NCBI RefSeq assembly: GCF_002571385.2
Contig: NW_019217847.1
Location: 47,599-111,598, forward strand
Origin: Stylophora pistillata
Taxonomy: Eukaryota
DNA: 64,000 nucleotides
Direction of reading: 5' to 3'
Program-made: the position numbers and the translations under genes
Notes under the pieces: model-generated
Seen by the model: only the letters and a program-made list of their open reading frames with translations
What the model was told of the DNA's origin: nothing
Databases searched by the model: none
Part shown: piece by piece, positions 12,049 to 64,000 of the stretch
How the letters are laid out: every line of letters starts with the position of its first letter
Numbering within the stretch: the first letter of the stretch is position 1

Positions 12049-15000
12049 TTATTTCAAGGATAGGTCGCCATAGTCAGTTGAGAAAAGAAGATAAACCCGT
12101 CGAGAAAGTTCAGGTCCAATTCTTCGGCTACTGGCCAGTACCCCGGCGCCACGACGGACCTGGAAGGAAAGGAAAACATCAAGATAAGTCTAACAAGGCA
12201 GATGTGTGAACTGAGTGTGGAAAGCATGTGATTATTGCAATTGGGGATGGGAGCACTTTAGACAGAACACAAACATTGTTTGAAAAAATAAAGTCATCAA
12301 GAAACCTATAGTGTTTATTCCTATTGGATAGATACCTTAGTTATTACATAATCTGGATTCTAACCACACCTTAACCGCAGTCACGTGATTATCCATATAT
12401 TTATCATTGAATGTTGAGTTCATCAGTATTCTAATAAAGCAGTTGTGTAGAGCACTTGGTCTGTGCACACGTTACTCTATAGTAGTGTGCATCGAACCCT
12501 AATACAAAACAAAACCCTTGGGAAATTTCAATTTTACAAACAGTAAACTGACGAACGAAACATTTTCTATTTTCTGAGAGCTTACCAAGATGTCCTGGAG
12601 CAGTTTAGAAGCTTCCTCCCTACTGCTACATCCTCGATAGGCCTTAAAAACATAGCGTTATGTTAATTATTAAGATTCACTACTTCTTTCGTGAAAGAAT
12701 ATTATAAGAATAACAAATATAAATTGTCGGGTAAGTTCACAAGATCTAAGAACAGTTAGAGTGTGAAAAGACTTAATGTAATTGAGATGACAGCATCTGC
12801 AAAGAAAATTATTTAGAGAGGAAAAAACATCATGATGCAGTACCTTAAGGAGACTCTGTGGAGAAGGATAAACGTTTGTTATGGCGGCCGCCATCTCAGC
12901 TGATACATTTCTCAACTGTTGAAAGTGTTTCTGCCAGACTTTCTTCAAACCTTCACCGTCTTTTGACACCTGCAAAAAGGAAAAATAACCACCTGCAGAA
13001 AGGAACAATAACCATGCTAGCAACCTCTTAGCAAACAGCAACATTTGAGGGACAGTGGAGAATTAAAAATAGTTGAGATTCATGGAAAATAACGAAAACG
13101 AGAAACTGTTGACAGGGGGCAATGGTAGGAATGGTCTGGTGACATCTTTTCTGCCTATCATGGCTCAATTTTAGTTCACCCTTCAAAGGATGTAAATGTA
13201 TCGCTGCTGCCCCCCCCCCCCCCCCCCCCTCTTCTGCTACCATTTAACCCCACACCATTTTTTGAGATTCTCCTGGGTAAAGGACCAAACATAATAATCC
13301 TGCCAGGGCTAAAACTAATATGGAGCACGGTGCACTAACCATGGGGCCAGCCCATCCTCCTCAATACGGAGCACAGAGGCCTCATATGTACTTGCCCCAC
13401 CCTTGACTCCCTCTGACAACCCCAACTGCATAAGTACCAAATCATGACACGAGTGCTGGGACAAAGAAGATAGCATTTGTTGATGATGTTGGGCTTCACA
13501 GTGTACCTTCACAGATCGTTTCTGTCCTTCCACACAGAATGAAAATACTTCTGGTTGTTTCCTCCTATTGATGCAGAATGTAATTCATTAATTCTTTGAC
13601 TACTAACAAAACTTTACAAGTGAATGGTCTGAGCAGCAGTTGTTGAACTTAATAATCAGAGATGAGGAGCTTTCAAGTACACATACCTACTGGTAACATT
13701 AATTCTAAAAGAGAAACCAAAACGAGATTGCCCAGGCAATAGCAAGAGAGCCACATGCTCAACTGGTTTAAGGCACTTTGACCTTTGTACCTATGGTCTA
13801 GCAAAGGGTTAACTTAGTCACCATCATAAAAGACTAAGACAACCATGCATGATTAAACTTCAATTTTAAAATCAAGTTTCTGTTATTATGTATTTATTCA
13901 ACTTATTAAGGTGTGGCAATAGACACAATGAATAGATATTTGAGTGATCTTACTTGAATGGTGCTTCAGCAACAGCTTTAGTTAACATGGCCAACAGATC
14001 AGCAAACTCCTCTTCAGTTTCACACATGCGTACTCGGCAGTCAGGCTGTTTAATCTGTAAGTCCACAAGCGCTTCTTCTACATCAACCCTTGACACCGTA
14101 ACACTGGGTACAGATTCCTTATTTGTTTTCTTTCGTCGTTTACCACTGGAATTATCACTATCTGAGGAGCTTTGTCCACGAACAGCATTTCGAAACTGGC
14201 GGTTTTGAGAGAGTTTCACATCTCTTTAGAGAAATCAAAGAAAAAAGTGTGACAATTCACTTTGCATTTTGTAAAATCTTCCTCTGTGCAGTGCATAACT
14301 AAAAAAATCCAAGAAAGGTGTTCTGTACTATTTGCACTCAAGGTAGCATGAGCACCTACTGGAAGTGCACTTTATAAAAAGCAATATTTTTATCATTCTT
14401 ATTGTGACAGTTATTATCATCATGTTGGTGATGTTGATGATGATGTTGATGTTGATAATGATGATGATGATGTCAATTATCATTATAATTATTAACTTTC
14501 AAGACATACCTGAAATACTTTTCAAGACCCATGACAACAAAAGTGATGATTTTTCCAGGGTAAATTGTCAGAGCTCTTTCAAAGAATTCAGTCAGAGTTT
14601 CTTCATCAGAGATAATAGATACTGCTGGATTTTGAATCTCCTAAATGAAAACAATGGGAATACAAAAGGTAGTACTGCAATCATGTTATGTTCAAGCCCC
14701 ATGACACAAACAGTAAAAAATTGTCAATCTATAATCATAAATAGGAAGCAAATATACAGATACTATTTCCTGCTTCCCTATTTGATCTCACCTCACGAAA
14801 TCGTACAACCATTTCCACAAACTTGACTACTGACAGACGAAGAACTGCATGGTTTTCATCAGTGACAGTTGTTCTGGTGGAGATCTACCAAGAAAGATGA
14901 AACAACACACACAAAACAGTGTTTCTATGAATGCTGAATCAATTCACTTTAATTCCCTTTTCATGGTTTGATATTTTATTTTCTAAAGATCCTGTCTCTT

Positions 15001-18000: not shown

Positions 18001-19993
18001 GTTTTCTGGCCTGTTGTTCTTTTTCTTTTGCTTGTTTCTTTGTTCTTTTTTCAAGTTCTTTTGCTTGTTTCTTTAGCTACAAAAGTGAGTAGTGATACAA
18101 AGAATTCTAAATAAATTAACTGTAAAAAGCACATATTGCAAAATAATCGAAAGAATACCTTATGATAAGTCTATGCAAGAGATGCTTTTTCAGGATTTTA
18201 AAAAATTGAAGATGTTGACATGGACAGATTGAAGCTTATAAACATCATCTGCCAACTCAGTGTCGACACTCCTCCTGACTATTCCTCAGTGCTGTATCAA
18301 ATTACATTATCCTTGCAAAGTGGACTGAGCCTCATCAGTATCAATAAAAAATAAAGTCTCTCAATATGCAAGTATCTATTTAAAGTGATACTTACATGAG
18401 CTTCATTTCTCTGTTTTGCAATTTCCTGTGGTAACCTTCTCCTTCTTTTAACAGGGATTTGAGAATCATCCTGAGAGTCAAAGTTGCTTCCTTGAAACTG
18501 AGAGTCATGTCTTTCATAATTATCTGTGTATGAGTTTGAATGTGATGGAGAAGATAGGGTGCCTCTACTACATGAATGTAAAGATGGAAGAACACATGGA
18601 AGATCATCACTGTCAGAGCTGTCATGATCACATGGAGAGGAATCTACAAATTTTTCTCCCTGTCTCTCCACAGCTTTCCTGTTCTTCTTTAGTGGCATTT
18701 GATTCCCTGAGTTTTTAGCTAGTGTTTTAGCAGCAGATGAATGTAAAGTGTTTCTAACATCCTGAATATCCTCTTGCTCATCATCATCCAAGAAGGAAAG
18801 ATCAATTATTGAACTTGCATGTTTGACCTTCCCTACCCCTACCTCACCCTTTTCTTCAGGGTGGTAAGAAGAAACATGTCCTACGCTGACAGCTGACTCC
18901 ATAGTTTGTGACTGCTTTCCAGGGCTTTTTCTAGATTCCTTGTCATTCATTCTGCTTCTTAAGGCACTGAACAAGCTTTTTCTCTCTTCATTTGCTACAA
19001 TAATGTCATCATCAGTACTATCTGCATCAGTGTAAACATCAGTGTCACTGGAATCATCTTTAATTTCTAAAACTTTTTCTCTGTTAACAGATACCTCTGA
19101 TTTATCAAAAGTCCTTGAATTAACCAGATTCCTTTGGGTCTGATCCTTGGCTTTGTTTTCAACATCAACATCAACATCAATATTGACTATGGCAGGAAAC
19201 TGAAAAACAAATAAGTTGATATTTGATGAACTGCAGTCAATTTCCACGGAGACTGGTAAACAGCTGTACGTGCAAATTGACGTAGTGTATTTGATAAATG
19301 TTTTTCTGTCAAATTCGAAGCATATTATATCGGCTATGACTTCAGTTACTCGCACTAAACGTAAAGGAAATGACAATGAAAGATTTGTAAACAAAGTAAA
19401 CACAGTAAACAGAGCATAAAAATCTGTGAACGTAGGCACAGGTACAGTCAATGATCAGCAGTTAAGGATGAAGAAAACTCATTATCATTCAAACTTTAAA
19501 AAGGCTCTTACTAATGGAGTGAATAAAAACTATTTTCATGTCACAGACGATAGCTCAAACTTTTGAGATCAGTTTCCCATAATTTGGGTTGTTTTGTTGG
19601 CGAATTATGCGACTATCGCGGTCTATGAACTGGAAAATATTACGCCACTAACTTAGTCTGTACATACTGTACAACTTTATCATAGTTATACTGACGAAGA
19701 TAGTGACGTAAAATCTTCCAGTTTATTGACTGAGATATTCACATATTATATTGTTATTATATACATGTATATTCCCAGCAGTTTTGATTGTTTCATCCGG
19801 TACTAACCTGACCATCCAGTATCCTGTTAATAGTTTTCATTGGACCTCTAGTGATTTCCAAATCTTTAGCTATATCTATTGGATCAACATCTGGGCAGAC
19901 TGACAGTACATTTTCGATCATAGTATGTGCTACAGGCTTTATACTACTAATACTACAGGAAAGATATTCCAGATTGTCTGCTTCATTAGCCAT
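12049..19993 (-). CDS. EME1: Crossover junction endonuclease subunit EME1; 12 exons: 19993-19808, 19199-18396, 18076-17948, 16855-16805, 16122-15940, 14884-14792, 14640-14510, 14223-13954, 13564-13507, 12969-12844, 12642-12586, 12159-12049
   Basis: ERCC4-like region (VSRVDVEEALVDLQ...TKAVAEAPFK), HhH region (AAAITNVYPSPQSLL) and the EME1-type C-terminus VRRGAGVLASSRRIGPELSRRVY. Splice phases are consistent. Confidence 0.92.
15150..15890. mobile_element. hAT-like MITE in an EME1 intron, with a 51-bp tandem hairpin unit in about 3 copies (15693-15830)
   Basis: Ends CAGGGCTGGAAATT and AATTTCGAGACCTG; subterminal GTCGCCA/TGGCGAC motifs. No TSD is retained. Confidence 0.6.
16290..16780 (+). mobile_element. 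5'-truncated LINE 3' fragment
   Basis: Text typical of an RT C-terminus (YAIEVWG...RTRSHNYILP*VQTNRFKSVFIKRCLF), followed by AATAAA and a (TTA)n tail. Confidence 0.7.
17043..17429. mobile_element. Penelope-like inverted-repeat insertion with a hammerhead-like core
   Basis: Inverted arms of about 130 bp containing CTGATGA-stem-GAAA(C/T)GTC. 14-bp flanking duplication ATCAATATCTATAT at 17029-17042 and 17430-17443. Confidence 0.75.
17466..17691. mobile_element. Second Penelope-like inverted-repeat insertion (variant core TTGACAA...GAAACGT)
   Basis: Inverted arms of about 80 bp. 14-bp flanking duplication TATTTTCTGTACAT at 17452-17465 and 17692-17705. Confidence 0.7.
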
Positions 19994-21339: not shown

Positions 21340-22388
21340 TATTTTATTTATTTATTTAATCGCTTTCACCATACTTACAATACTAAAAGGACTAAAATAT
21401 ACATATGAACAAGACACAGAGGAGAACGGAGGACAAAGGTGCGGGACACACAACAGAGCGAGGCTCCAAATTAAGTGTGCCCTTACGAGAAATATACAAA
21501 TACTAACTATGTAAACAACAGACAGTGTAAAAAGTATATAAAAAAGTATATACAATAATAAAAGCAAAAACGAAAACGATATGAATAAATCCCTTATGCG
21601 GCCGATAGAAAGTCCTAATAGCAACAGTTACCATCTAATAGAAGATCACGTGACCTGCTGCATTTGCAGCAGATCGACTTCCAGGTGTTGAAGTTAGTGA
21701 CGTCATAGTTTGTACGAAAAGCAGCGGAATAGCGTTGGAGTACGTGAGATTTAAACTGATTGAGAGAACTAATAATACGAGTGGATACAGGTAAGGTATT
21801 CCATAGTTTAGCGACACGATTAAAGTAACTAAATTGAAAGAGCTTTGTACGGCACTTAGGAATTAGTACGTCTAGATCAGAGCTATGGCGAGTAAGACNT
21901 CACCAGCCGTCCAGCCTGTCCAGGTCTTTTTGGAGTGACTCACAGTCCTGTAGACTATCAATGACACTGGAACACTTTGAGTCGTCGGCGAAGAGTGCGA
22001 TATGATTCTGTATCACCGGCGGGAGGTCGTTCACATAAACTAAGAACAGCAGAGGACCAAGGATACTGCCTTGAGGGACTCCTGATGGAACTGGGGAACG
22101 ACTAGAGGTGAAACCGTGGACCAAGCACTGCTGACCACGTCCATCTAGATAACTCTCAAACCACTGGAGAAGTTTCCCACTGACACCGTATTGGGAGAGT
22201 TTCAGAAGCAACCCTTGGTGGGAAACACTGTCGAAAGCCTTCGCGAGATCCAGGTACACTATGTCCGACTGCAGGCCCTTATCAAGAGACTGGCTAATCT
22301 CGTGATAGAACGTTAGAAGCTGGGTGACTGTAGATCGACCCTGAAGGAAACCGTGCTGAGCATTGTCAAACAAAGGACAAAGAAAATC
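21340..22388 (-). mobile_element. CR1/L2-clade LINE fragment (RT core plus 3' UTR), with an assembly N at 21899
   Basis: QHGF..GRST, YLDLAKAFDSV, GVPQGSILGPLLFLVYVNDL and FADD motifs; (TAAA)n tail at about 21340-21358. Confidence 0.92.
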
Positions 22389-25300
22389 ATTACTTGCTTG
22401 ATGTACTAATTAATTGCTTGGCATGTGCTTAAAAGTACTTGCTTGGCGTACTTTACTTAACTTGCTCGATATACTTTCTTTGCTTAGTGTACTTTACTTC
22501 CTTCATGTATCATTTACTTGCTTGTTGTACTCTACTTCCTTGATGCGTACTTTACTTACTTGGCGTACTTTACTTGCTCAATGTAATTAATAATTTCTTG
22601 ACGTACTTTGCTTGCTCAATGTTCTTATTAATCTCTTGGTGTACTTTACTAGCTGAATGTACTTATTAATTTCTTGAAGTACTTTACTTGCTCAATTTAC
22701 GTATCAATTACTTGTCGTGCTTTACTCGCTTGGCGTAGTTTTATTGCTTGGTTTACTTTACTTGCTTAATGTACTTATTACTTTCTTGATGTACGTTACA
22801 TCCTTGGTGTGCTTAACTTGCTTGATGTACTTAATTGGCTCGACGTACTCTACTTGCTTGGTGTACTTCATTTGCTCGGTGTACTTTACTTTAGGTGTTC
22901 CAAGCACTGAGTTAAGTACACTAAGGAAATAGAGTAAGTCGAGCAAATAATTGGTACATCAAGCAAGTAAAGTATACGAAGCAAGTAAAGCAAACAAAGT
23001 ATATTAAGCAATTACAGTTAAGTAGGCCAAGCAAGTAATTAAAGTATGCCTAGCAAGTAAAGTACACCAAGCGAGTAGAGAAGTAACGTAATGGCCGTAA
23101 CCAGGAGTTTGTATAGCTCGGGACATTAAAAGTTGTCTTACACCATCTGCTCCAAAAGTGCTGTTCTTTCGTTTCAAGCGTTTGGCAGATTCTGGGAAAA
23201 TTCGGGAGAAACGAATCATAAAAGTTCATATGAGATATATTCTGTATCCAGTTTTAAGTACAGATGTCTTAGTTTTCAGGAATTTGTTTTATCCTAAGTC
23301 ATTAGAAGTCCCAGATGCCTTTGCTTGAGAGTGAAGACTGATTGCTTTTCATCTAACGCAAGCACTTCCGTAATAGCAAATGGTCGTATGCTCAGGGGTT
23401 CCCACTTTTTCTTTATCGAGAACCGGTTGATTAAAAGAAAAATTATGAAATCCGTTTTTTAAAGATTCCGGAGCTCAAATAAATCAAGTTGAGTTTTTTG
23501 GTGAGCAACATGGTCAAACATTTGTCCAGGGAACTTAAAGGAAAATAAGAACTCATGCCGGCATAACACTGAACACCTTTTTACTCACATTCAGTACCGC
23601 TCAGTGCTAGAATTTTTATCTCAACCCAAGTGAACGACTAAGTCAAGCTTGGTTTTGCGTTATCAAAAAAGCTCTGATTTCATAAATTATCAAGCTTCCG
23701 TTGGTAAGTATACATTTAATCCAGAGAAGAAAAGATTTATCACACATAGAGCTAACAAAATACCTCTTCCTTTAAAACTTCACTCGGTCGCGAAAAGTCG
23801 TCCGTTGCTCAATTAGAAGTAAACTGAAATCATTTTCGTCGCCGCTTCTCAGATAGAAGTTGACACAAGTTAACTAACAAAGATATAAGCGAAGATCTGA
23901 AGTGTAAAATTCCAGGCTTGGTGCTAAAGATAACTCCGTCGGATTTGATGAACACATAATTAATTTCTTTTGTTTGAGAATTTATTGGGGCACCTTGGCA
24001 AGGCTCAAGGCAAAGCCAAAAATTAAGAAAGTTATAAACTTATAAGTATTAAAATGCCCCGTGGTATTATTATGGGAGCTATAGAAATCATGTTATTACG
24101 GAAATGATTAAAGAGAGTCATGGAGCGGCTTCAAAACACGCAAAGACACTGATCTCCTCGCAAAAGGCAACTTTAAAAACCTGGCTTTTCACTGCAAAAA
24201 ACATAAAGTTAAAAAATTGAAACAGCGAGGTTTTGTCTACTTTAAACGGAGGGATGTGCATTGTGATAGGAGAAAAAGCTGTCGGGTTTGGAAATATGTC
24301 TTTCACAGAAAGGAAACAGAATATGTGCTCATTAGGAACTCATGTGATTACAAAAGCTCTTCACAATATCCGCCTTTTAAGACTCCTTTTCCATTCAAGA
24401 AGAGTTTATAAACATTGGAAATTAATACGAATGATAAAAATAAGGCTGGGAAAAGTTTTTATATATTCTTTAGAGAATAATTTACAGAAATTGGAACTAT
24501 TATGTTTGGAAAAGATGGAAGCAATAGAATCTATGACGCGGATGTTTGGGCCGGTAAATAAAATGTGGCCTATGAACAAAGGAAATCTCTTTTTTCTTTT
24601 ACTTTCACTGATTAATATCGAACACAAAGAAACGATATTGAATGAAAAGGCGGAGCAGTAATTGTCGATAGGAATATATAAAACATACTTGTTAATGAGG
24701 TTTGACCGGATGCCTTTTAAACTGCTAATTGCGACCAGTGGGAGGACGTTTGTTCCGCGTCAGTCGGGAAGAACATTTTATTTGATGATGATCAGTAAGA
24801 TTGTAATTAAAAAGATAATTGAAGTGTTGACAATGAAAATGCTTGGAGGGAATTGTATATTAAGTGCGGTGTTTTCATCCGACGCTCACTTTCAGTTGGT
24901 GCGACTAACACGAAACACTTTGTAAATCTGGTTCTAGAACGACTTTTTCATCGACAAGGAACAGCAGAGTACAGGTAAGAAGACTGTGTATGATAAAATT
25001 TCATTTACGATGATGTTTGAGTATTTATTCTTTGAGTGGTGTTTCTGGTATTGATGTAAAGGTATGGGAATGTTTTTGCTATTCATTATAACTGCCGAGC
25101 TGAATTTCTATCATGTTTCAAAAAAGCTCATCATGAGCTCAAAGATGATGTTTGAGAAATTTTCAGCACTTTTTTTGTTGCATGTGTTACCCATTATTTT
25201 AAGGCTGGCGTATTAAATTGGGTGTCACTGATCTGAATCTTGGTTTCTAGTAGGACTTTTTTTTTGTCCTTTCAGACAATATCGGATGAATTCATGCCTC

Positions 25301-50111: not shown

Positions 50112-53100
50112 ATGGCTTCCTCTGATAAGGTATCTAGTTTAAGTAGTATCACGTCTCAAATCTTATGGTTGTTCTTTCTGACAGACGAATGTTTTCTGTG
50201 TTTCAGAAATTCCTCCTGACAGGAGCTCAAACCGATGGTAAGTCAGAATTGTTTATTTTACTTATTTAATGAATCGTTTGGTGTCGTTATTATTTGATTC
50301 GTTCCGCAAATGTACACATTCTTGGCCCTTCGAACAAGACTTAAAAGCATTCTTCTGCGCTTACTTAAAGCATCTCGTTAACATGTCTAGACTGTTAATT
50401 CGGTTTTCGCAAATAGCTATAACTGTCTTCTATTATTTCTCTCAAGGTTAGGCCAACCTTGCAAATATTCAAGCTATTATTAAGATATATTGCAGTTTCA
50501 ATTTGTCTTTTGCAGTATTGGGATTACTTATGCATGTACGTGGTTTTTGATAGCCCACAGTATGATTAAATCGTTATTGTTTGGAAGCGTTTTAAACTTT
50601 TATGAAGGTTTGCGACAAATCGATTGGCTCTTTTTTCATAACAAAACCATTGTTTTTTGTTTGACCCGTTTTCCTTTCAAAGTAATCAGTTCTTTTAACT
50701 CAACCTCTACGTGTGTTTTTCCAATAACTATTTGGTTATTTCACTTAAAAAACTACTTCATGGATACGGAATTTCCGGAACAATCCACCTTTCGTCATTG
50801 TGAGTATTTTGTACGCTTTACTGGTGGCGGTTCATTTATAATTCACGTGTTCGAGGATTTAAACATTTCCATTCATCACGAGTGAAAATGTTGAATGAAG
50901 AGCGTAGTCTCGATCCAAATCATTGAAAATTTAAGAAAAAAAGTTATTTGTAACGCAAAAACTGACGACCGACTTAATGTCTCTTTTGTTGGAGAAATGA
51001 GTGTTGTTTTGGGGGTTCTTCTCGCTTTATTTTCGACTTTTGCGTTGAAAATGTGGGCCCATACATACAACAATCATTAACATTTATATGAAAAATCTCA
51101 GGTACAACGCAGTGAACTTTGGGAGCTAATTACAAATAACAAAGTTGTTCTAGCCAAAAGCAGTCCTTGTTTAGAAAATTCTACCAAGTCTCAGTAAATT
51201 TGAGGCAAACAATTTGGCTTCAGACCAAATTTATTGTGGTAGGAAGGGAGTGTCACTACAAAAGAGCTTTCTCACCACCTGTCAAACTTCTTCTATTGTC
51301 TTGTGTCACATGGAGTCAATCATTAGAATTGAATAAGCACTCGAACTTGTTTTTACTTGTTGTTATGCTGGCCGCATAAATGTTGTCTCAGTTATAACTC
51401 TTAAATTGTATCAAGTATTTTAGTTTAAATGTTGTTCAGGTCTATTTTCAAATCATTGACTTTTCAATTTTGTTGCAATGATCTTATCGGTGGCCATACT
51501 ATGGCACCAGTGTGTACTTAAGATTTAAATGTTCTGAAATTCTCCTTGTTTAAAATAAGTCTTAAATGCCCATCATTTTGTAAAATATACTCATTATGTT
51601 CATTTATTTCATTAAAAGTTATTGTCATGGTGAGAGCTCTAGTTTATCTGCTATTCCAAATGTATCATGAGTATCAACCCTGTCCTTTGAAATCCCAGGG
51701 AGAGGAGAGGGGAGAGGGAGGGGATCTCTAGGGAGGTATGTTACAAAAGGGAAATTCCAAAGAAGGGTGGGATTCAAACCAAGCCAAATGCCCTTGAAGA
51801 TGAATGATAAATGTTTGATCCATGGTTGTTACTGTATGTTACAACTCAATGAAGTGTTTAACTTTTCCAGCTTTGTCTAAGGTGTTCAAGTTTGCTGATG
51901 TTGAGGAGACTGGGTATGTTGATGTGGCAACAATCTCAACTCTTGCTGTACAACTACTGGGAGCTCAGCTTAGTGAAAATGAGAAAGAAACAATAAATAG
52001 TAAAGCAGAGAGCAAGGCTGACAAAGGTGTAGTGAAGCATGTCATTTTTTAATTTTACCAGTTAAAGAGCTCACTGTGATCACAGCTACCTCAATTAAGG
52101 ATACGTGGTAGATGCAGTCTCCTTTACATCTCTGGCGTACATTTTTGTTTAGCTACTGAGTGCCAGCCACATGCATGAAGAACACTAAAAATAAGAAACT
52201 GGTTGAATTACTGTACATGAGGAAGGATAGGTTATCTTGATTTGAAAACGTCTTGAATACACAATCATCCTCATCTTCTTTGTGTCATCACTTTCTTTTG
52301 CTTTAGGGTTACTTTCTTACCAGAACTTTATAGAGATCATGATGGAGACAATGCAGGCTATGACACATTGGGGAAAGTTGAAGACAGTTCTAGAAGGTTA
52401 TGTTGGTTTTGATACAGTGCAGGAGCAAATCCGCAAAAAATCTCTCAAAAGAGGATTTGAATTTAATCTCATGGTTGTTGGTAAGTTTTTATCAGTTATG
52501 ATTTTATTTTTAATACCTTCAATTCTACTCTTTGACAAGTTAATTGGGTTTGAATGTGACTACTGTAAATTAAAATAAAATCTTATTGGCATTTCAAGTC
52601 AGTTTATAGTCATACATTCAGCAGTAGTTTGGTATATGCATAAAAATAGACCATTTTACAGTTGTGTACTTAGTTGCCAAGCCTTTGATTTGGAGAGAGG
52701 CTGAAGGTGACCTTGTTGTGGTAGAGACCAGTATCTAGTTGGCATGATAACAAAGTAATTTACATTTGAAAAGCAGCAAGGTCTGTATCAAGGTTTGTAT
52801 CATGCAGAAAACACAGTCACCCTTAGCCTCACTCCTATTCAAAGGCTTGGCAACCAAGCATGCAACTGTAAAATGGACTATTCCTGTCATCTTTTTCTCA
52901 CTTGATATGTATAGGAAGTATTCTTCTTTGAAAAAGACTGCAAGTGCTTTCCTTATTCAAAGATATGAAGGAAAAAGGCGAAAGATTCCTTTCTTGTCTT
53001 TTTTAGGTGCAACAGGCCTTGGTAAATCAACCATGGTGAACACTTTGTTTAAAGGAAGATTGAGTAGAATATCTTCCACTGGAGCCACCCCCTGTATTCC

Positions 53101-55719
53101 CAAGACTGTTGAAGTCAAATCAGTGAGTCATGGTGTGTTTGGGTTCATTGCTATCTTATAATCACCTGTGTTATTTCTTTGGTATTATATACTTTTTGGG
53201 TGAGATATGATACTTGGAATGTTTAGGTTAAGGCAAGGTTATGGGCGATAAGAAAGTAAATCTTTATGAATGCTATTATAAGCCAAAATTTCATTTCTTA
53301 TTTTGCAGTCATTGAGGAGAAAGGAGTAAGACTAAAACTTACCATCACAGACACACCTGGGTTTGGTGATCAGATCAATAATGAAAGTTGGTAAGGCTGT
53401 TCTACTGTTCATTGTATTAATAAGTTTTTTCGATACTGTAGATGCATGCCCCCCTTACTAACACTGTACATTTTGATGCCCTTAATGCCTTATTAGAGTA
53501 TGCTAAGGACCAGCTGACTCGCTGGTTCTACACAGCAGGTATACAGCAATGCAGCTGTACCTGTTTACCAAGAAATGTTTAGCAAATACTGTGAGTTAGT
53601 TCTGGTTGTTTTGGCTCCATCTGGTAGCATCTGTTATATTTATGTATACATGCTTTGTGAGATAGTATTCACATTTGCTATAATTAGCGTGAATCACCTT
53701 TATTATTGGAGTGGGAAACTCTTCAAATAAAACTGTATTAATTTGAATAAAAGTAAGATATGAAGGTCTGTTTGATAATGGTAGTAGTTATTTCACGCCT
53801 GTTTCAATTATGTTGCTGCAGCTGGGACCCAATCCTGCAGTTCATAAATGAACAGTACAACAAATATTTGAAAGAGGAAACTAGCATCAACAGAAAGCCT
53901 CGAGTTCCAGATAGCAGAGTTCACTGCTGTCTGTACTTTATTGCACCAACTGGCCACAGGTGGGTTCATCCTAACCAACACTAAGATCTTCTTTATTAAT
54001 TTTTGAAAAAATGGCTTGTTTTAGGTCAGTGGAATCCTGAAAAGTTGTGTACAGCTTTATATGAACAATTTTGTCCCAGTGGTGAGGTTTGTTAATTCCA
54101 AAGAGCAGCTGAATGCAGTACATCGAGCAATTTATTTTCTAAAGAAGTTTGAATATTAATTTTTTGTACATGTATGTGTGGAGTGTGTGTTGATGCTTAT
54201 AAAGTTTCCATGCAAATTTTAATGAACACTTTTATGTGTACATCTGCAATAGCAACTATTTGCATTGAAAAAATGCAACATTAATTAACAGGAAAAGCAC
54301 TCAAGGTGTTCAAAATGAAGTGGCTTGCCCAGTGATGAGTGACGGAGAACTGGTGTGCCCGATTGGTGACTTACGGCCATGGTTTGAATTTTTTTCAGGT
54401 TGAGGCCCATTGATGTGGAATTCATGAAGAGATTAGACAAGTGTGTCAATATTGTGCCAGTGATTGCAAAGGCAGACACACTAACTGTTGAAGAACGTGA
54501 AGCCTTCAGAAGGAGGGTACAGTCTAACTTCTGTGAATTTTCATGTATTTACCAGTCAGTTAATTTAGCTTTCCATTTTTGGACAATCGAAACACATTAA
54601 ATGAAATTATTCAGTACATGTGTTCTTATTGTAGCTGCGGGAGGATATAGAGAAAAATCGCATTAATATCTACCCAGTTCTTAATCGACATGACTTGGAT
54701 GAAGAAGAAGCTAGGACAACGTCAAGAATAAGGGTCTGTAAGAAATGGAATGTTACTTATGGAATTTGTTACTTAATGGAATTTGTTATTTAATGGAATT
54801 TGTTACTTAATGGAATTTGTTCCACAATGAACTAGCACATTGTTAATTTCGCCCAAAATTTTACTTATCATTAAATGATATAAAGTGAAGTATGAATATT
54901 TGTTGTTTAAGGTGCGTTTATTACATAATCACTGAGTCGATATTTTTCATTTTGAAGTACAAAGCTTTAGTGAAAGAGTACTAATCTAGTTCACATTGCC
55001 GAGATGTGGTCAGACCACATCAGTATTGGAAGTTCCTGTCTTACAGTTAGTTTATTGGCTTTTCTCAACGTTCTGTTTGCGTCATGTCTTACTTCTTAGG
55101 ATCAGCTGCCCTTTGCTGTAATTGGTAGTGATCGATACGTCACTGTGTCAGGAAAGCCAGTTCTTGGAAGGAAGACAAAATGGGGCCTCATTGAAGGTAA
55201 CGAGAATTTGCAGACATTCCGGCTAGTGTTGAAAATGTTCCTCTTGTTGTCGTGCATTTGCTAGAGGTAATTTATTTTATGATTTGCTTTCAGTTGAAAA
55301 CAAGAACCACTGTGAATTTTCTCAGTTACGAGACATGTTAATCAAGTAAGTGTGAAATTGGTGGACGAGCACAAGCTATTAAAGGATAGCTACCCTCTGG
55401 AGTCTGTTCCGGTCTGTCAGTTAGGGAAATATCGTGTGGGGACTAGGGAGAGCGACCGAAAGCCAGGCTAATGAGTCGCTTAAAATGGAGGACGTTTTTG
55501 TCGCAATCTATATGGGGATTTGTTGTTCTTGGAAATAATTAACAAACTTATATGTCTTTTCATAGAACACACATGCAAGATTTAAAGGAGGTCACAGATA
55601 ACATTCATTATGAAAATTATCGCCGCAAACATCTGACAGAGGAGAAACACGAACAAGTGGTTCTACAAAACAATGTAGTGAACATGGAGGACGTCATGGG
55701 TCAGGAGAGTAAAATTTAA
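50112..55719 (+). CDS. SEPT3/9/12-group septin with N-terminal EF-hand-like lobe; 12 exons (50112-50129, 50207-50237, 51871-52026, 52307-52480, 53007-53132, 53309-53390, 53822-53959, 54399-54516, about 54635-54733, 55100-55196, 55294-55345, 55566-55719)
   Basis: [17 protein letters not shown]1 [10 protein letters not shown]3 [19 protein letters not shown]4 AKAD, PFAVIGS..GRKTKWG and HYENYR motifs; no C-terminal coiled coil. Confidence 0.92.
52646..52882. mobile_element. MITE in a septin intron
   Basis: TIRs AATAGACCATTTTACAGTTG..TTGCCAAGCCTTTG and CAAAGGCTTGGCAA..CAACTGTAAAATGGACTATT. Confidence 0.8.
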
Positions 55720-57599: not shown

Positions 57600-58455
57600 A
57601 TGCCTCGTTCATTTACACTAAGAAGACTGACTACGCCAAAACATTCGGACACGTCGCAAAGTACAGGTAAGGCTTCATTTTACTGAAATATAGGGTGTTT
57701 TTTCCAACCTTGATGCAAAAATTTTAAAATCTAAGTGTCTGAGGCGAAGGAGGCCAACCAAAAATTGAAAAAAAGCACTTAGCTTCTTTATTAAGCACCG
57801 TATATGATGTTTTAAGTCGTCTGCAGCTTAAAACCCACTTTTGAATATGCTGTTCATAAAAGTTCCCTTCTCATTTGTAGGAAGGGATGAAAGTGAAAGA
57901 GAACAAAAAGTCTTGGAACATCCAGATGCAGATAACACAAGAGTAAGGACTGAAACTAGCCAAGTAAGAAGTGATTGGAGTGTGACACAAGAGTTAGTAG
58001 ATGGGAGCCAATCGCAGGAGAGTGCTAATAGGGAATGCGCAGAGGGTCTGTCCTTTTCCATAGAAAAAATCCTGACTTTACCTGCCTCTGGAGCAAAACG
58101 TACCCATCGGAAACCTATTGTTAAAAAGTCCAGCAATGCTTCAAATTACCACTGCCCTCACTGCGGAAAAGTCTTTAAAACTAATTACACTTTTGGAAAG
58201 CACATGAAAATGCCCGAACACACGAGTGACAAGCCATTTGCATGTCAAACATGTGGCAAAGGTTTTCGTCTCTCCAGTACACTGTGTAGACACAAGATTA
58301 TCCACACCAATCAGCGACCCTTCAAATGTCACGTGTGTAACAAAGCCTTCAATCGCCAATCTACACTAAAGACACATTACAAAATCCATAAAGGCCTGGT
58401 AACGAATGACAACAATGTTGTACAGCCAAGCTACGGCTGCGTTGCAGTCTGGTAA
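57600..58455 (+). CDS. Fez/Fezf-like C2H2 repressor with SNAG-like N-terminus, eh1 motif and 3 zinc fingers; exons 57600-57666 and 57881-58455
   Basis: Starts MPRSFTLRR; phase-1 GT-AG join; FSIEKIL motif; fingers [18 protein letters not shown] and [12 protein letters not shown] match Fez fingers 2-3. Confidence 0.85.
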
Positions 58456-60115: not shown

Positions 60116-63100
60116 ATGCTGCAGCTGCATGTAATGTTCAGCATCGAGGTAAAGTTGTATTTATTTCTTCTTGGTACATCAGCGGCGACCAGTGTGGCTT
60201 CTTACCCAAACTGTGACCAGCTCTCGTCAACCGAGCTAAGTTTTGACGTAGAATACTGGGAGACAAGCCCATATACAAGTTGCCGAGACACAAAGCAGAT
60301 GAGCTTGCAGTCCTGTGCAGAGGGTTAAGTATAAATATCATGATTCTAAATACATGTAGTTGTTGACACAGAAGAAGATGACACAGAACAATCTGACTCC
60401 GCAGAGCACGGCCCCCAACACATTTGAGTGTGTATTAACAACACGTTTGCGCAATACGATCAATTCCGTTTTAGTAGCTTTTTGTTTTAGGATGCAAAGA
60501 AACTTCCCAAGATCACTTTCCTCCTTGAATCTATGTTTTTATACTCATTTGGGTTAATTTTAACCTTGAAATGACAAAAAAAAAAAAAACAAGCCGGATC
60601 TGTAAATCGGATACTTGTGATGGAAAATTAATCCTGAGCCGGCTTCTAGGTGACAAAATTTCAACGAAAATAATTACAAATGTCGGTCTTCCTGTTTATA
60701 TGCACAGGAAGCGAAAAGAAAACACCAAGACAAAGCCTTTAATGTAACTGAGAACTCTTTATTATTATTATTTTTTGGGAGGATAGTTTGTTCCCTGGAG
60801 TGTGGTGTTTAATACACGGTTTGCGCTCGATTCAATGCTTAAAACAAGCTAAGTACAGTTATACAAGCCCACGTAAATGCCATCAAAATAACTTGCATTG
60901 CGAAGAACAAAAAGAGATTTTCGTATTTTTTCTACAGATACAGTTCATTAAAACTGTCACTCGACAGCAATTTCTTTTTCAGTTTGAAAGTAGGTCTTTG
61001 TTCACTAAAGGAAAATACGAAATAGGTATTGTTTTGTAAATTTTATACGATCTAAAACAAAAACTGTTAATCGCAGAGTTATGCAAAGCTCAGGCAAAGT
61101 AGATGCTATTGAATATCACTCCAAATTTATGAAAAAAGATTTTTTGGAATTACTATAATATTGCGGTTTTGACTTAGAAAGATATAAGCCTAAAATGCTA
61201 CGATCCTAAATTTTCGTTTTTATGTTTTCATAGCGAATTGCAAGCGAAGAACTCTCACACTGTGAGAAGTATGACAGCTGGCCAAAAAGATAAAATAAGT
61301 ATGACCAAGACAACTTAGAACGCTAGTTTTTACTTCCCACCCCTACTCCGTTAATTAGGGACCTTAATTCGATTAAAAAATGAATTTCTACTCTTAGTTA
61401 GAATTTCAAAAATGATTGCAGGAGCTTACTGTCTTATACGGCGCCACAGCTCAACTTCAGCATGACGTATAAAAGTAGCGTTGAGTTCCAAATGGAAATT
61501 AACATAATTTGCCGTCGCGGTTTCGGTTCGCAGACGACGCAAATTTTGGCGATTTCACGTTGTTGTTTTGCATGGGACGGCTAAGAAATGTACAAAGTTT
61601 CAAAATGCACGTCCCGAGCTATTGTTCAGCCAATTAGATTTCTTGTTTTTCCACGTCCTCGTTGCCGTCGCCGTTGTGGTTGCGTAAGGTCCCTTGAAAA
61701 TAGTAGTGCTACATTGCTGCTAGTCTAGTACCCAGACCTTTTACGGTCAAGCGGTTGTACATTTCAGTTACAATTACACGGTAGGATACATACAAACATA
61801 CATACATACATATACTTTATTTAATCTCGAATTTGGAGTAGCTAAAGAATAAGCTAGTATCTTCGAGTTACAAGTATAATTCTAAATACTACTAAAATGT
61901 AAAATGTAAAATTGTAACATTCTAAAATTTAACTATGAGAAAGAGTCATACTGTAGAATCTTGCGCTTGAAATCAGAAAAGTCAGACGTTCTAAAAGAGT
62001 CCGGAAGAGAGTTCCATAGTTTTGAAGCCATATATGAAAAGGAGTGAAGACCATAAGTAGTAGTTTTTGTAGACGGTAGAGACAAAATATAATTTCCGCG
62101 TAGATTATAGGATACAGACCGGAAACTAAACATATTCTTTAGATAGCCTGGATAGCAGTTAAAAAACAAGGTCTTGTACAATATGATCTGGTTACAAGAT
62201 TAGGTTCCAACTACTGTTAAATACCAAATGATATTCACCTTCTTTACCTCATCCCAGTTAATAACATAGTAAGCAATGCGTGAAATCAAATTCTATTGCC
62301 CCAGCCTACTCCATATTCCGATTGTGCACGCTGAAATGCATTGATATGGGAATTTCTCCCTAAGAAAAAAATTGAATCGACTACCACGTTGAAATTCAGT
62401 ATTAGCAGGTTCAGAACGTGCTATGCGTTTATCGAGAAATTTTTATGGAACTTCAAGTTGGAGCTCTTCAAACTTTCCGCATTCTATATATCTCGCTGAG
62501 TGCACGTCAACGCATGAACACAGCTGTCAATTTTCCTCAAATCCCTTTCTCAGATGAGAACCTGTTTAGCCAACTTCCAATAAGATCTACGAACTTAACA
62601 GGAGGATAAAAAGGGGCAATAAAGCACCTCTTCGATTCTGAAGGAGATTCTTCAGTTTTAGTGAGTGACCCAAGCATGCTCGTATTTTTTAAAACCTCAT
62701 CTCTATCGATCTTTGCAGCCGGCTTCCTTGGTACATTCCTTCGCCAGATGATCAAGCCCTCTAAAATTTCCTTCAAACCAACTGAGAAAAAATTCCAAAA
62801 GACTTCTTCGAATAACACTCAAAATGTAACCATTGCCATACCTTTTATGATAAAAAGGAACACGGACGATCCATGTGAGATTAAAGTACATCACTCCAAA
62901 GGACCAGCCTACATTGCTAAGAGAAACCGGATGAAGCCATTGGAACAACTTGGAGGCTCGTTTATTAACGGAGGACAGATTATCGGTTTGACCCTCATCC
63001 TCACGGTTATATCCGGGGTCTTTATATGGATACTAGTAAGTGACTTACACCATGCAAATGCGTCAGGCAAACAAATTTACTTTAAATTTGATTTATTTTT

Positions 63101-63683
63101 GTATTGTCTTTAGCTGACACACGGAAAGGGAAAAAAGCCTGATTATTCTGCTTCTAAATGGCCCAATTTTGCAGCCAATTAGGTCGCGACATGGACTGGC
63201 TCGTACTCGTCATGTATTTTGTTGTATAGCACGTAAATGTAACATCTCTTTCAACAGGATCGCCATAAGAATCCGGTGGACTTTCCCCCTTCGTTCATCA
63301 GTGGTTCCTGGCAGGGCTTTTGGTGGGCTTTCGTGACAATGACTACTGTTGGGTAGATAGCATTCATTGCCTTTAGATATTGTCATAAAGTTGTAAATTT
63401 CATATAAAAAATGTGTAATAGTAGTTATTATAAGAATAATAATGATGGTGATGATATCGATTTATTTAATTATATGATGGTAATAATTACGATAATTGTG
63501 TACTTACATGCAGTAGTTGATGTCTGTAGGTATGGAGACACATCTCCCAAGTCCGTGCCAGCTCGTTTATACAGTATTTTGTGGATGTTGTTGGGCATGG
63601 TCGCCTTCTCAGTTCTTACAGCCAATGTCACGAGTTCTTTGAATTATGAAATTGAAGAAGACTTGAATCTATTTGGCAAAACG
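60116..63683 (+). CDS. Partial GluR0-like K+-filter ion channel; exons 60116-60323, 62719-63035, 63258-63352, 63530-63683, continuing beyond the window
   Basis: Signal-peptide exon, about 150-aa ectodomain, TM (IIGLTLILTVISGVFIWIL), pore GFWWAFVTMTTVGYGD, TM ending FSVLTANVTSSL. Splice phases 1, 0 and 2 are all consistent. Confidence 0.82.
61357..61694. mobile_element. Degenerate MITE in the channel intron
   Basis: Ends AGGGACCTTA and TAAGGTCCCT, with CGTCGCCGT-type repeats. Confidence 0.5.
61787..62190 (-). mobile_element. LINE 3' fragment with (TATG)n tail
   Basis: YKTL...YNLRG...TTTYGLHSFSYMASKLWNSLP is a typical CR1/L2 ORF2 C-terminus. Confidence 0.8.
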
Positions 63684-64000
63684 GTAAGCGCCGTTTTGTA
63701 TCGTCCTGTGGCAATATTTGCCGAACAGTGACATTGATTGAAAAAACTTTTAACGGCACGCAGATCTGACCATCATCAAAAGCCGATAGTTAAAATCTCT
63801 GATTCCATTCTACTTTTTTCAAGGGGTGATTGCTACCAAAGCCTTTTAAGCACAGTCAATAACATCGATCTATCCGTTGACTACCAAAATTTCAACTAAT
63901 TAAATAAAAATAATAGCATCCCGTACAGAATCTGCGCTACTGTTTCTCAAAATGTTCTTAAGATGAACATCTTGAAATGATTCAATGTCTGGCGAATAGA

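Follow-up and report, generated by a model that had tools for sequence, protein, structure and literature searches.

An EF-Hand Pair at the N-Terminus of a SEPT3/9-Group Septin from the Coral Stylophora pistillata

Introduction

The window analyzed here is a stretch of 64,000 nucleotides from the coral Stylophora pistillata (contig NW_019217847.1, assembly GCF_002571385.2), and the question that it raises concerns a septin gene on its forward strand: does the encoded protein begin with a calmodulin- or centrin-like EF-hand lobe, and is such a lobe a Ca2+ sensor? An earlier note on this DNA, made from the sequence alone, had proposed an EF-hand lobe fused to a SEPT3-group septin, and profile comparisons, a fold model, and RNA reads all agree with it. 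Leaving the mechanism aside, it is near certain that the protein is a SEPT3/9-group septin with an N-terminal EF-hand pair.

The N-terminal extension of septins is seen as variable, that of SEPT9 being an actin- and microtubule-binding tail (PMC8801916, available sections). No description of an EF-hand septin was found in the searched papers (subscription papers and the docx supplement of PMC13081904 lay outside the search), and the main texts of PMC11238149, PMC8801916, and PMC13081904 contain 0 mentions of "EF-hand". The architecture is visible in automated annotation and apparently undescribed in these papers. The statement of the earlier note that no EF-hand septin had been described thus holds for the searched text but not for InterProScan output, which lists an EF-hand on 8 septins.

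Results and Discussion

Gene Structure and Transcription

The gene consists of 12 exons on the plus strand, between 50112 and 55719 (Table 1), with GT-AG borders at 11 of 11 introns and a frame of 414 amino acids open to the stop. The product is identical at 406 of 414 positions to a Pocillopora damicornis record named "neuronal-specific septin-3-like", with which it has the start position in common. The peptide that the earlier note had assembled from in-phase exons is confirmed as residues 17-81 of this model. However, the note placed the second helix of the lobe in exon 52307-52480, which actually encodes helix 4 of the lobe after the last part of loop 2.

RNA supports 10 of the 11 splice joints. 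In three raw runs of one study, at about 2% of each, exon 2 is joined to exon 3 by 7, 5, and 9 reads, and exon 3 to exon 4 by 10, 22, and 10; this junction check had been suggested by the earlier note, whose assertion that the fusion is not a gene-model artifact is borne out, as the reads connect the EF-hand exon with the septin exons. A 543-base RNA contig spans exons 3, 4, and 5, and the contig set of a separate study confirms the joint between exons 3 and 4 but not that between exons 2 and 3. For the first intron, which follows the 18-base exon 1, the support consists only of loose read ends matching exon 1 (4 + 5 reads).

The RNA depth of exon 3 (12, 20, and 16 in the three runs) is similar to that of exon 4 (9-10, 12-15, and 19-31), and we therefore assign the lobe to the main transcript. 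A start at an internal methionine, with exon 51871-52026 skipped, had been named in the note as an outcome that would speak against the fusion; the depths rule it out as the main form. Exon 3 has one copy in the genome.

A candidate alternative first exon (50760-50799, plus strand) resembles the start of the Acropora X3 isoform; it has trace read depth and no joint among those listed for the three raw runs, and is unproven. Isoforms of anemones and amphioxus exchange their first exon at this same codon, a change that would alter helix 1 of the lobe. High-copy repeats, covered very deeply by diverged reads, are located just upstream of the gene (about 49000-49270) and in intron 4 (about 52645-52882).

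The Septin Part

The Pfam Septin domain (PF00735) covers residues 117-393 of the 98% identical Pocillopora record (E 1e-113) and is followed by 21 residues, a tail too short for a coiled coil. In the window model, the G1, G3, and G4 motifs start at residues 127, 183, and 265, and the switch I Thr160 is present. Among septins in the PDB, the closest matches are SEPT3 (4.5e-123), SEPT9 (1.2e-116), and SEPT12 (1.3e-114), with weaker ones to SEPT7 (3.5e-102), SEPT2 (4.4e-92), and SEPT6 (1.9e-75); the best 10 of the 42 septin sequences are all SEPT3, SEPT9, or SEPT12, which is a ranking and not a tree. Tyr294-Pro295 aligns with Tyr198-Pro199 of SEPT3, and the Tyr-Pro pair with Pro199 is a feature of the SEPT3 subgroup (10.1101/2023.04.22.537027, available sections). 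The position of SEPT3 Phe203 is not kept. On these sequence grounds the coral protein is assigned to the SEPT3 group (Group 1A).

With SEPT3, SEPT9, SEPT12, and yeast Cdc10 (Group 1A; PDB 4z54, 5cyp, 6mq9, and 8sgd) it has in common G1, G3, G4, the switch I Thr, the YVGF hook, helix α0, the Tyr-Pro pair before the polyacidic region, and the short C-terminal tail. It differs from these vertebrate and yeast proteins at the N-terminus, where it has a predicted folded EF-hand pair and a T-x-W-G linker, and 0 of the 42 solved septin sequences align upstream of coral residue 88.

Five other septin loci are found in this genome, SEPT2-, SEPT6-, and SEPT7-like as judged by eye. None of them shows an EF lobe (best E 0.43) within stretches of about 9.5 kb, in which distant first exons may be missed. 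Two near-identical septin loci lie about 16 kb apart in the genome, the result of either tandem duplication or a repeat in the assembly.

The EF-Hand Lobe

Sequence comparison and fold prediction agree that residues from about 10 to 86 are a calmodulin/centrin-like EF-hand pair. A profile of 10 cnidarian lobes gave 204 matches in the PDB at E ≤ 1, the best at 7.7e-9, and the best 60 of these 204 comprise only centrins, calmodulins, a myosin light chain, and radial spoke protein 7. The match scores give no preference to either centrin or calmodulin as the origin of the lobe. On a 20-member profile of calmodulin-sized proteins the coral lobe scores 45.2 bits, compared to at most 12.3 for shuffled sequences (1,884 of 2,000 reported) and -1.0 for the reversed one, a comparison that favors the real sequence over the shuffles, the profile members having been drawn from our own search. 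Pfam EF-hand_7 (PF13499) matches 10 of 10 members of the cnidarian profile; exon 3 alone and exon 4 alone give no Pfam match. The EF-hand profile check suggested in the earlier note thus has a mixed outcome, the homology being above chance and the coral lobe below the curated Pfam cutoff. Among 13 further orthologs one exceeds its cutoff, that of Vazella (EF-hand_1, 28.1 vs 25.4).

The AlphaFold model of a 120-residue fragment of the Nematostella ortholog, obtained with 45 sequences, contains helices at 4-19, 29-40, 46-59, and 67-83 and short strands at 26-28 and 64-66, with a predicted local distance difference test (pLDDT) score of 66-78. Its best structural matches are an EF-hand protein (Z 10.7, root-mean-square deviation 2.1, 86 residues aligned) and the N-domain of CaBP1 (Z 9.8, root-mean-square deviation 2.2, 74 aligned); the matches to EF-hand folds have Z of 7-10.7, values that are modest by themselves for helical domains. 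The earlier note would have yielded to the absence of a predicted EF-hand fold, and such a fold is predicted on this ortholog. Both ESM Atlas searches stayed below 0.9 (0.89 and 0.80) and provide leads only.

At the exon 2 positions, L10 is kept in 36 and Q14 in 37 of the 39 rows having a residue there, and the hydrophobic core F22, L41, F76, M80, and M84 is conserved. The lobe resembles those of centrin and calmodulin (PDB 2ggm/28js, 5d43, and 1a29; PF13499) in its two helix-loop-helix units, the glycine at loop position 6, the hydrophobic residue at position 8, the L-T-x-x-Q start, and the Phe after loop 2. Unlike in these proteins, it is a single lobe fused to a GTPase, the ligands at positions 3, 5, and 12 are lost, and single residues are inserted in helix 2 and close to loop 2.

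The Calcium Loops

By the usual EF-hand rule, Glu at position 12 is needed for tight Ca2+ binding and opening of the lobe. In the 41 aligned orthologs, loop 1 keeps Asp1 and Gly6 throughout (41/41 each), Glu3 in 32/41, Thr or Ser at position 5 in 35/41, and Asp or Glu at position 9 in 39/41, while Glu12 occurs in 0/41; three glass-sponge orthologs have Asp at position 12. Asp1 of loop 2 is likewise found in 0/41. The canonical D1, D/N3, D/N/S5, E12 pattern is not matched by the coral loops, which read D, E, T, T and S, A, K, N at these positions, and a PS00018-like pattern fits 2/41 orthologs in loop 1 and 0/41 in loop 2. Loop 1 carries Lys/Arg in amphioxus and is nearly invariant across cnidarians over residues 20-43.

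By the usual rules, neither coral loop should bind Ca2+ tightly. The earlier note was right that the loops are degenerate and lack Glu at position 12, where loop 1 has Thr37 and loop 2 has Asn75. Of its two suggestions, a Ca2+-regulated or an EF-scaffolded filament subunit, the latter fits the coral protein better, both loops failing the canonical pattern.

The Linker and Helix α0

The T-x-W-G linker directly follows helix 4 and accompanies the lobe in every full ortholog seen, and about a dozen residues separate the end of the lobe from the YVGF hook and α0. The net charge is -6 for the lobe and +4 for α0. Between the coral and 14 medusozoan-type rows, the lobe is 65-71% identical and the G domain 64-70%; between the coral and sponges or amphioxus, the values are 26-44% for the lobe and 50-83% for the linker and α0.

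The linker was also compared with the centrin-target motif W1xxL4xxxL8 of the XPC type (PMC3871271, available sections). Its hydrophobic spacing is 1-4-8 in 27/41 orthologs and 1-5-9 in 14/41, and no helix is predicted there. Directly after the Trp comes a Gly, Pro is frequent in this stretch, and septins that have no lobe carry the last Leu as well.

Distribution and History

The lobe is present on septins of hexacorals, an octocoral, Hydra, Clytia, and Sanderia, and also of demosponges (Amphimedon, Ephydatia, Dysidea) and glass sponges (Vazella, Oopsacas). The searches rely on shared words, so that absence in other lineages is weak evidence. The RefSeq models named "neuronal-specific septin-3-like" in corals, anemones, Hydra, Clytia, sponges, and Branchiostoma are orthologs that already carry the lobe. 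Lobe-bearing RefSeq models are named as plain septins, and among full-length rows the precomputed Pfam EF-hand appears only on three sponge-type proteins; the names may miss the lobe because its PF13499 score is under the cutoff. Branchiostoma has RefSeq isoforms both with and without the lobe, those of 329 residues beginning at a Met inside helix 4; these lobe-less isoforms are a possible step toward the vertebrate state. A PKD1L2-septin fusion in Branchiostoma belcheri looks like a merged gene model and was set aside, as separate models of 407 residues exist.

File S1 of a 2026 preprint (PMC13081904) reports InterProScan on about 200 candidate septins, and in its available part EF-hand rows appear on 8 proteins, from Hydra, Acropora digitifera, Clytia, Mnemiopsis, Sycon, Amphimedon, Salpingoeca macrocollata, and Capsaspora. 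The septin P002729 of Capsaspora owczarzaki has PROSITE PS00018 on both loops and a Pfam E of 1.5e-13 (PMC13081904). Both of its loops read D-x-D-x-S-G-x-I-x-x-x-E and are followed by the T-x-W-G linker; it is thus like the coral septin in architecture, length (414 amino acids), and linker, and differs in that its loops are canonical and neither of the coral loops is.

In the sequence sheet of the same preprint, covered in 7 of its 12 parts, the Sept9-type proteins of 8/8 choanoflagellates and of Oscarella have, by eye, a lobe-like N-terminus and the linker, with Tyr replacing Trp in Choanoeca; the preprint places choanoflagellate Sept9 as sister to animal SEPT9. The models of Trichoplax, sea urchin, and Pigoraptor start inside helix 4 and keep the linker, and the Daphnia and ichthyosporean sequences and a Ciona PDB chain start too late for the lobe to be judged. 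In the covered parts of the sheets, human and chicken SEPT9 and the Group 1A-like protein of Fonticula have neither the linker nor an EF-hand row, and human SEPT9 has disorder predictions instead.

A cnidarian-specific origin is ruled out by the sponge, amphioxus, and Capsaspora occurrences, and the framing of the fusion in the earlier note as a cnidarian question has to be given up, the fusion being much older and reaching Capsaspora with both loops canonical. Because the lobe and the linker occur in Capsaspora and choanoflagellates, the fusion predates animals. From two species, human and chicken, we infer that vertebrates lost the lobe. The fusion would then have arisen before animals as a true Ca2+ sensor, still canonical in Capsaspora, and the lobe would have decayed to a structural role in choanoflagellates and most animals and disappeared toward vertebrate SEPT9. 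Tentatively, and with more doubt than trust, we propose that in the common ancestor of animals, choanoflagellates, and Capsaspora the central septin of the octamer sensed Ca2+ directly, its EF pair gating the central NC interface and with it both filament assembly and membrane binding; Capsaspora would retain the switch, the coral protein would be locked or of low affinity, and vertebrates would have substituted a disordered extension.

Proposed Role of the Lobe and Alternatives

Group 1A subunits pair via their NC faces at the center of the octamer, where α0 stabilizes the interface; α0 also bears the polybasic patch that binds membranes, and in SEPT3 the interface alternates between open and closed (10.1101/2023.04.22.537027 and PMC8801916, available sections). 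By analogy with human and yeast septins, the coral protein would form the central NC homodimer of an octamer and hydrolyze GTP, and the five other septin loci would make SEPT2/6/7-like partners available (groups by eye). Since Group 1A subunits pair through the NC faces there, two lobes would sit side by side at each octamer center, about a dozen residues upstream of α0. We give about an even chance to the coral lobe being, after loss of the key Ca2+ ligands, a Ca2+-insensitive clamp or spacer at the NC interface. The invariant Trp90 of the linker would likely dock on the lobe or on the interface as an anchor, and the acidic lobe would bias the basic α0 between buried and exposed states, which would tune octamer closure or membrane binding.

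A number of observations count against parts of this proposal. The EF-hand_7 match of the coral lobe spans residues 17-81 and scores 18.2-21.8 bits, below the cutoff of 30. The fold model is that of the Nematostella fragment and not of the coral protein; the full-length AlphaFold model (16 sequences) has a mean pLDDT of 41.7 and was not used, and Foldseek returned nothing at E ≤ 0.001 among 500 rows, although the rows listed are mostly EF-hand proteins. In the Nematostella model the linker is unstructured, with pLDDT below 50. The lobe has not been seen to touch the septin body, and the position in the octamer is transferred from human and yeast. Residues retained in loop 1, namely D26 (41/41), E29 (39/41), G31 (41/41), and D/E34 (39/41), could hold a metal. 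The lobe-less amphioxus isoforms indicate that the lobe can be dispensable, and the proposed single origin and loss in vertebrates are read from where the lobe is present or absent rather than from a tree.

It is unlikely that metal sensing persists in the coral lobe, with loop 1 binding Ca2+ or Mg2+ through a non-canonical acidic set (D26, E28, E29, T30, and D34), possibly completed by a neighboring subunit, and gating filament assembly. The near-invariance of residues 20-43 in cnidarians would be expected of such a sensor, and Capsaspora, canonical in both loops, and the glass sponges with Asp12, of which 2/3 fit the canonical pattern and Vazella passes Pfam EF-hand_1, point the same way. 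Thr at position 12 and Glu at position 3 in the coral, the lack of Glu12 and of Asp1 in loop 2 in all 41 orthologs, and the Lys/Arg in loop 1 of amphioxus argue against it. Rather improbable as well is an adaptor that grips the amphipathic helix of an outside partner (an IQ motif, or a centrosomal or ciliary protein), as centrin or a myosin light chain does, and tethers it to the middle of the octamer. No such partner was found, the lobe changes quickly from phylum to phylum (26-44%) while the linker and α0 hold (50-83%), and the T-x-W-G linker always travels with the lobe, which points to an internal contact; such an adaptor would nevertheless be in line with the centrins and calmodulins that are the nearest sequence matches, with the myosin light chains and axonemal EF-hand proteins among the fold neighbors, and with the conserved core hydrophobics.

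There is very little to recommend a functionless vestige, or an artifact that joins two neighboring genes in one model. The sub-threshold Pfam scores, the lobe-less amphioxus isoforms, and the Trichoplax and sea urchin reference models that start inside helix 4 could be read in this way. However, the direct RNA joints and the single exon holding helix 4 and the septin start refute the artifact, and conservation of the lobe equal to that of the G domain in Cnidaria, in an architecture common from Capsaspora to amphioxus, speaks against a vestige.

Significance

Should the lobe be ancestral, our view of septin structure would be built on proteins, from vertebrates and yeast, that lack it, and a folded domain would stand at the octamer center in much of early animal diversity. 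A link between Ca2+ and septin assembly is made testable by the series of loops that are canonical in Capsaspora, partly intact in glass sponges, and degenerate in cnidarians and choanoflagellates, with the lobe optional in amphioxus isoforms and absent in human and chicken at its end. Ca2+ control of the coral gene itself is less likely. In Salpingoeca rosetta, a sept9 truncation mutant has cell-size and rosette phenotypes (PMC13081904, available part).

Other Features of the Window

Table 1. Septin gene parts and other features, in window positions.
Feature	Position	Strand	Evidence or remark
Exon 1, 6 codons with the start codon	50112..50129	+	GT donor; loose RNA ends at 50205 match in 2 runs; Pocillopora start
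Exon 2, helix 1 start with L-T-x-x-Q motif (aligns with first helix of centrin/calmodulin)	50207..50237	+	RNA joint to exon 3; alignment
Candidate alternative first exon, 13 codons and 1 base, GTGAGT donor	50760..50799	+	in frame with exon 3
Exon 3, remainder of helix 1, EF loop 1, helices 2 and 3, beginning of loop 2	51871..52026	+	model, RNA, fold
EF loop 1, residues 26-37 (D1, E3, T5, G6, V8, D9, T12)	51897..51932	+	degenerate
EF loop 2, residues 64-75, split by intron 52027-52306 (S1, A3, K5, G6, N12)	52011..52326	+	without canonical ligands
Exon 4, loop 2 end, helix 4, T-x-W-G linker, YVGF hook, α0 and polybasic patch, first G-domain strand	52307..52480	+	
Linker T88-x-W90-G91-x-L93-x-T95-x-L97	52363..52392	+	T88, W90, G91 in 41/41 orthologs
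YVGF hook and helix α0/polybasic region, residues 100-117	52399..52452	+	helix in model; SEPT3 alignment
Exon 5, P-loop (G1) and switch I Thr160	53007..53132	+	model, RNA, motif
Exon 6, G3 motif DTPG	53309..53390	+	model, RNA, motif
Exon 7, septin G domain	53822..53959	+	model, RNA
Exon 8, G4 motif AKAD	54399..54516	+	model, RNA, motif
Exon 9, Tyr294-Pro295 (SEPT3-group proline) and polyacidic region	54635..54733	+	model, alignment
Exon 10, septin G domain	55100..55196	+	model, RNA
Exon 11, septin G domain	55294..55345	+	model, RNA
Exon 12 coding part, last helix, short tail, stop	55566..55719	+	model, RNA
Nuclear receptor gene, C4 zinc finger and ligand-binding-like exons	2370-5544	+	Pfam, reading frames
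ERCC4-domain exon, further exons nearby	13953-14225	-	Pfam
Reverse-transcriptase fragment, LINE-like element	21618-22409	-	Pfam
Signal-peptide-like start, then H-I-R-G-K-R	26170-26454	+	no Pfam match
Three similar single-frame open reading frames, 504-576 amino acids, shared G-G-S-x-S-A-G motif	29213-30796, 31398-33125, 34280-35791	-, -, +	
Two Kunitz/BPTI domain exons	37002-37358, 40141-40473	-	Pfam
Broken frames	47340-48527	-	
C2H2 zinc-finger gene, upstream F-S-I-x-x-I-L motif	57832-58452	+	Pfam
Ion-channel pore-like exons	62610-63728	+	Ion_trans_2, E 7.4e-5

The long open frames at 7752-9725 and 18300-19454 (minus strand) have no Pfam match, and the three similar frames of 504-576 amino acids have none at 1e-4; we take the latter to be SGNH-hydrolase-like. 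The ERCC4-domain exon presumably belongs to an EME1-like gene, and the broken frames resemble a hAT-type transposase. The frame at 26170-26454 resembles a HIRamide-type precursor of amidated neuropeptides, and the zinc-finger gene looks to us Fez-like, with an eh1 repressor motif.

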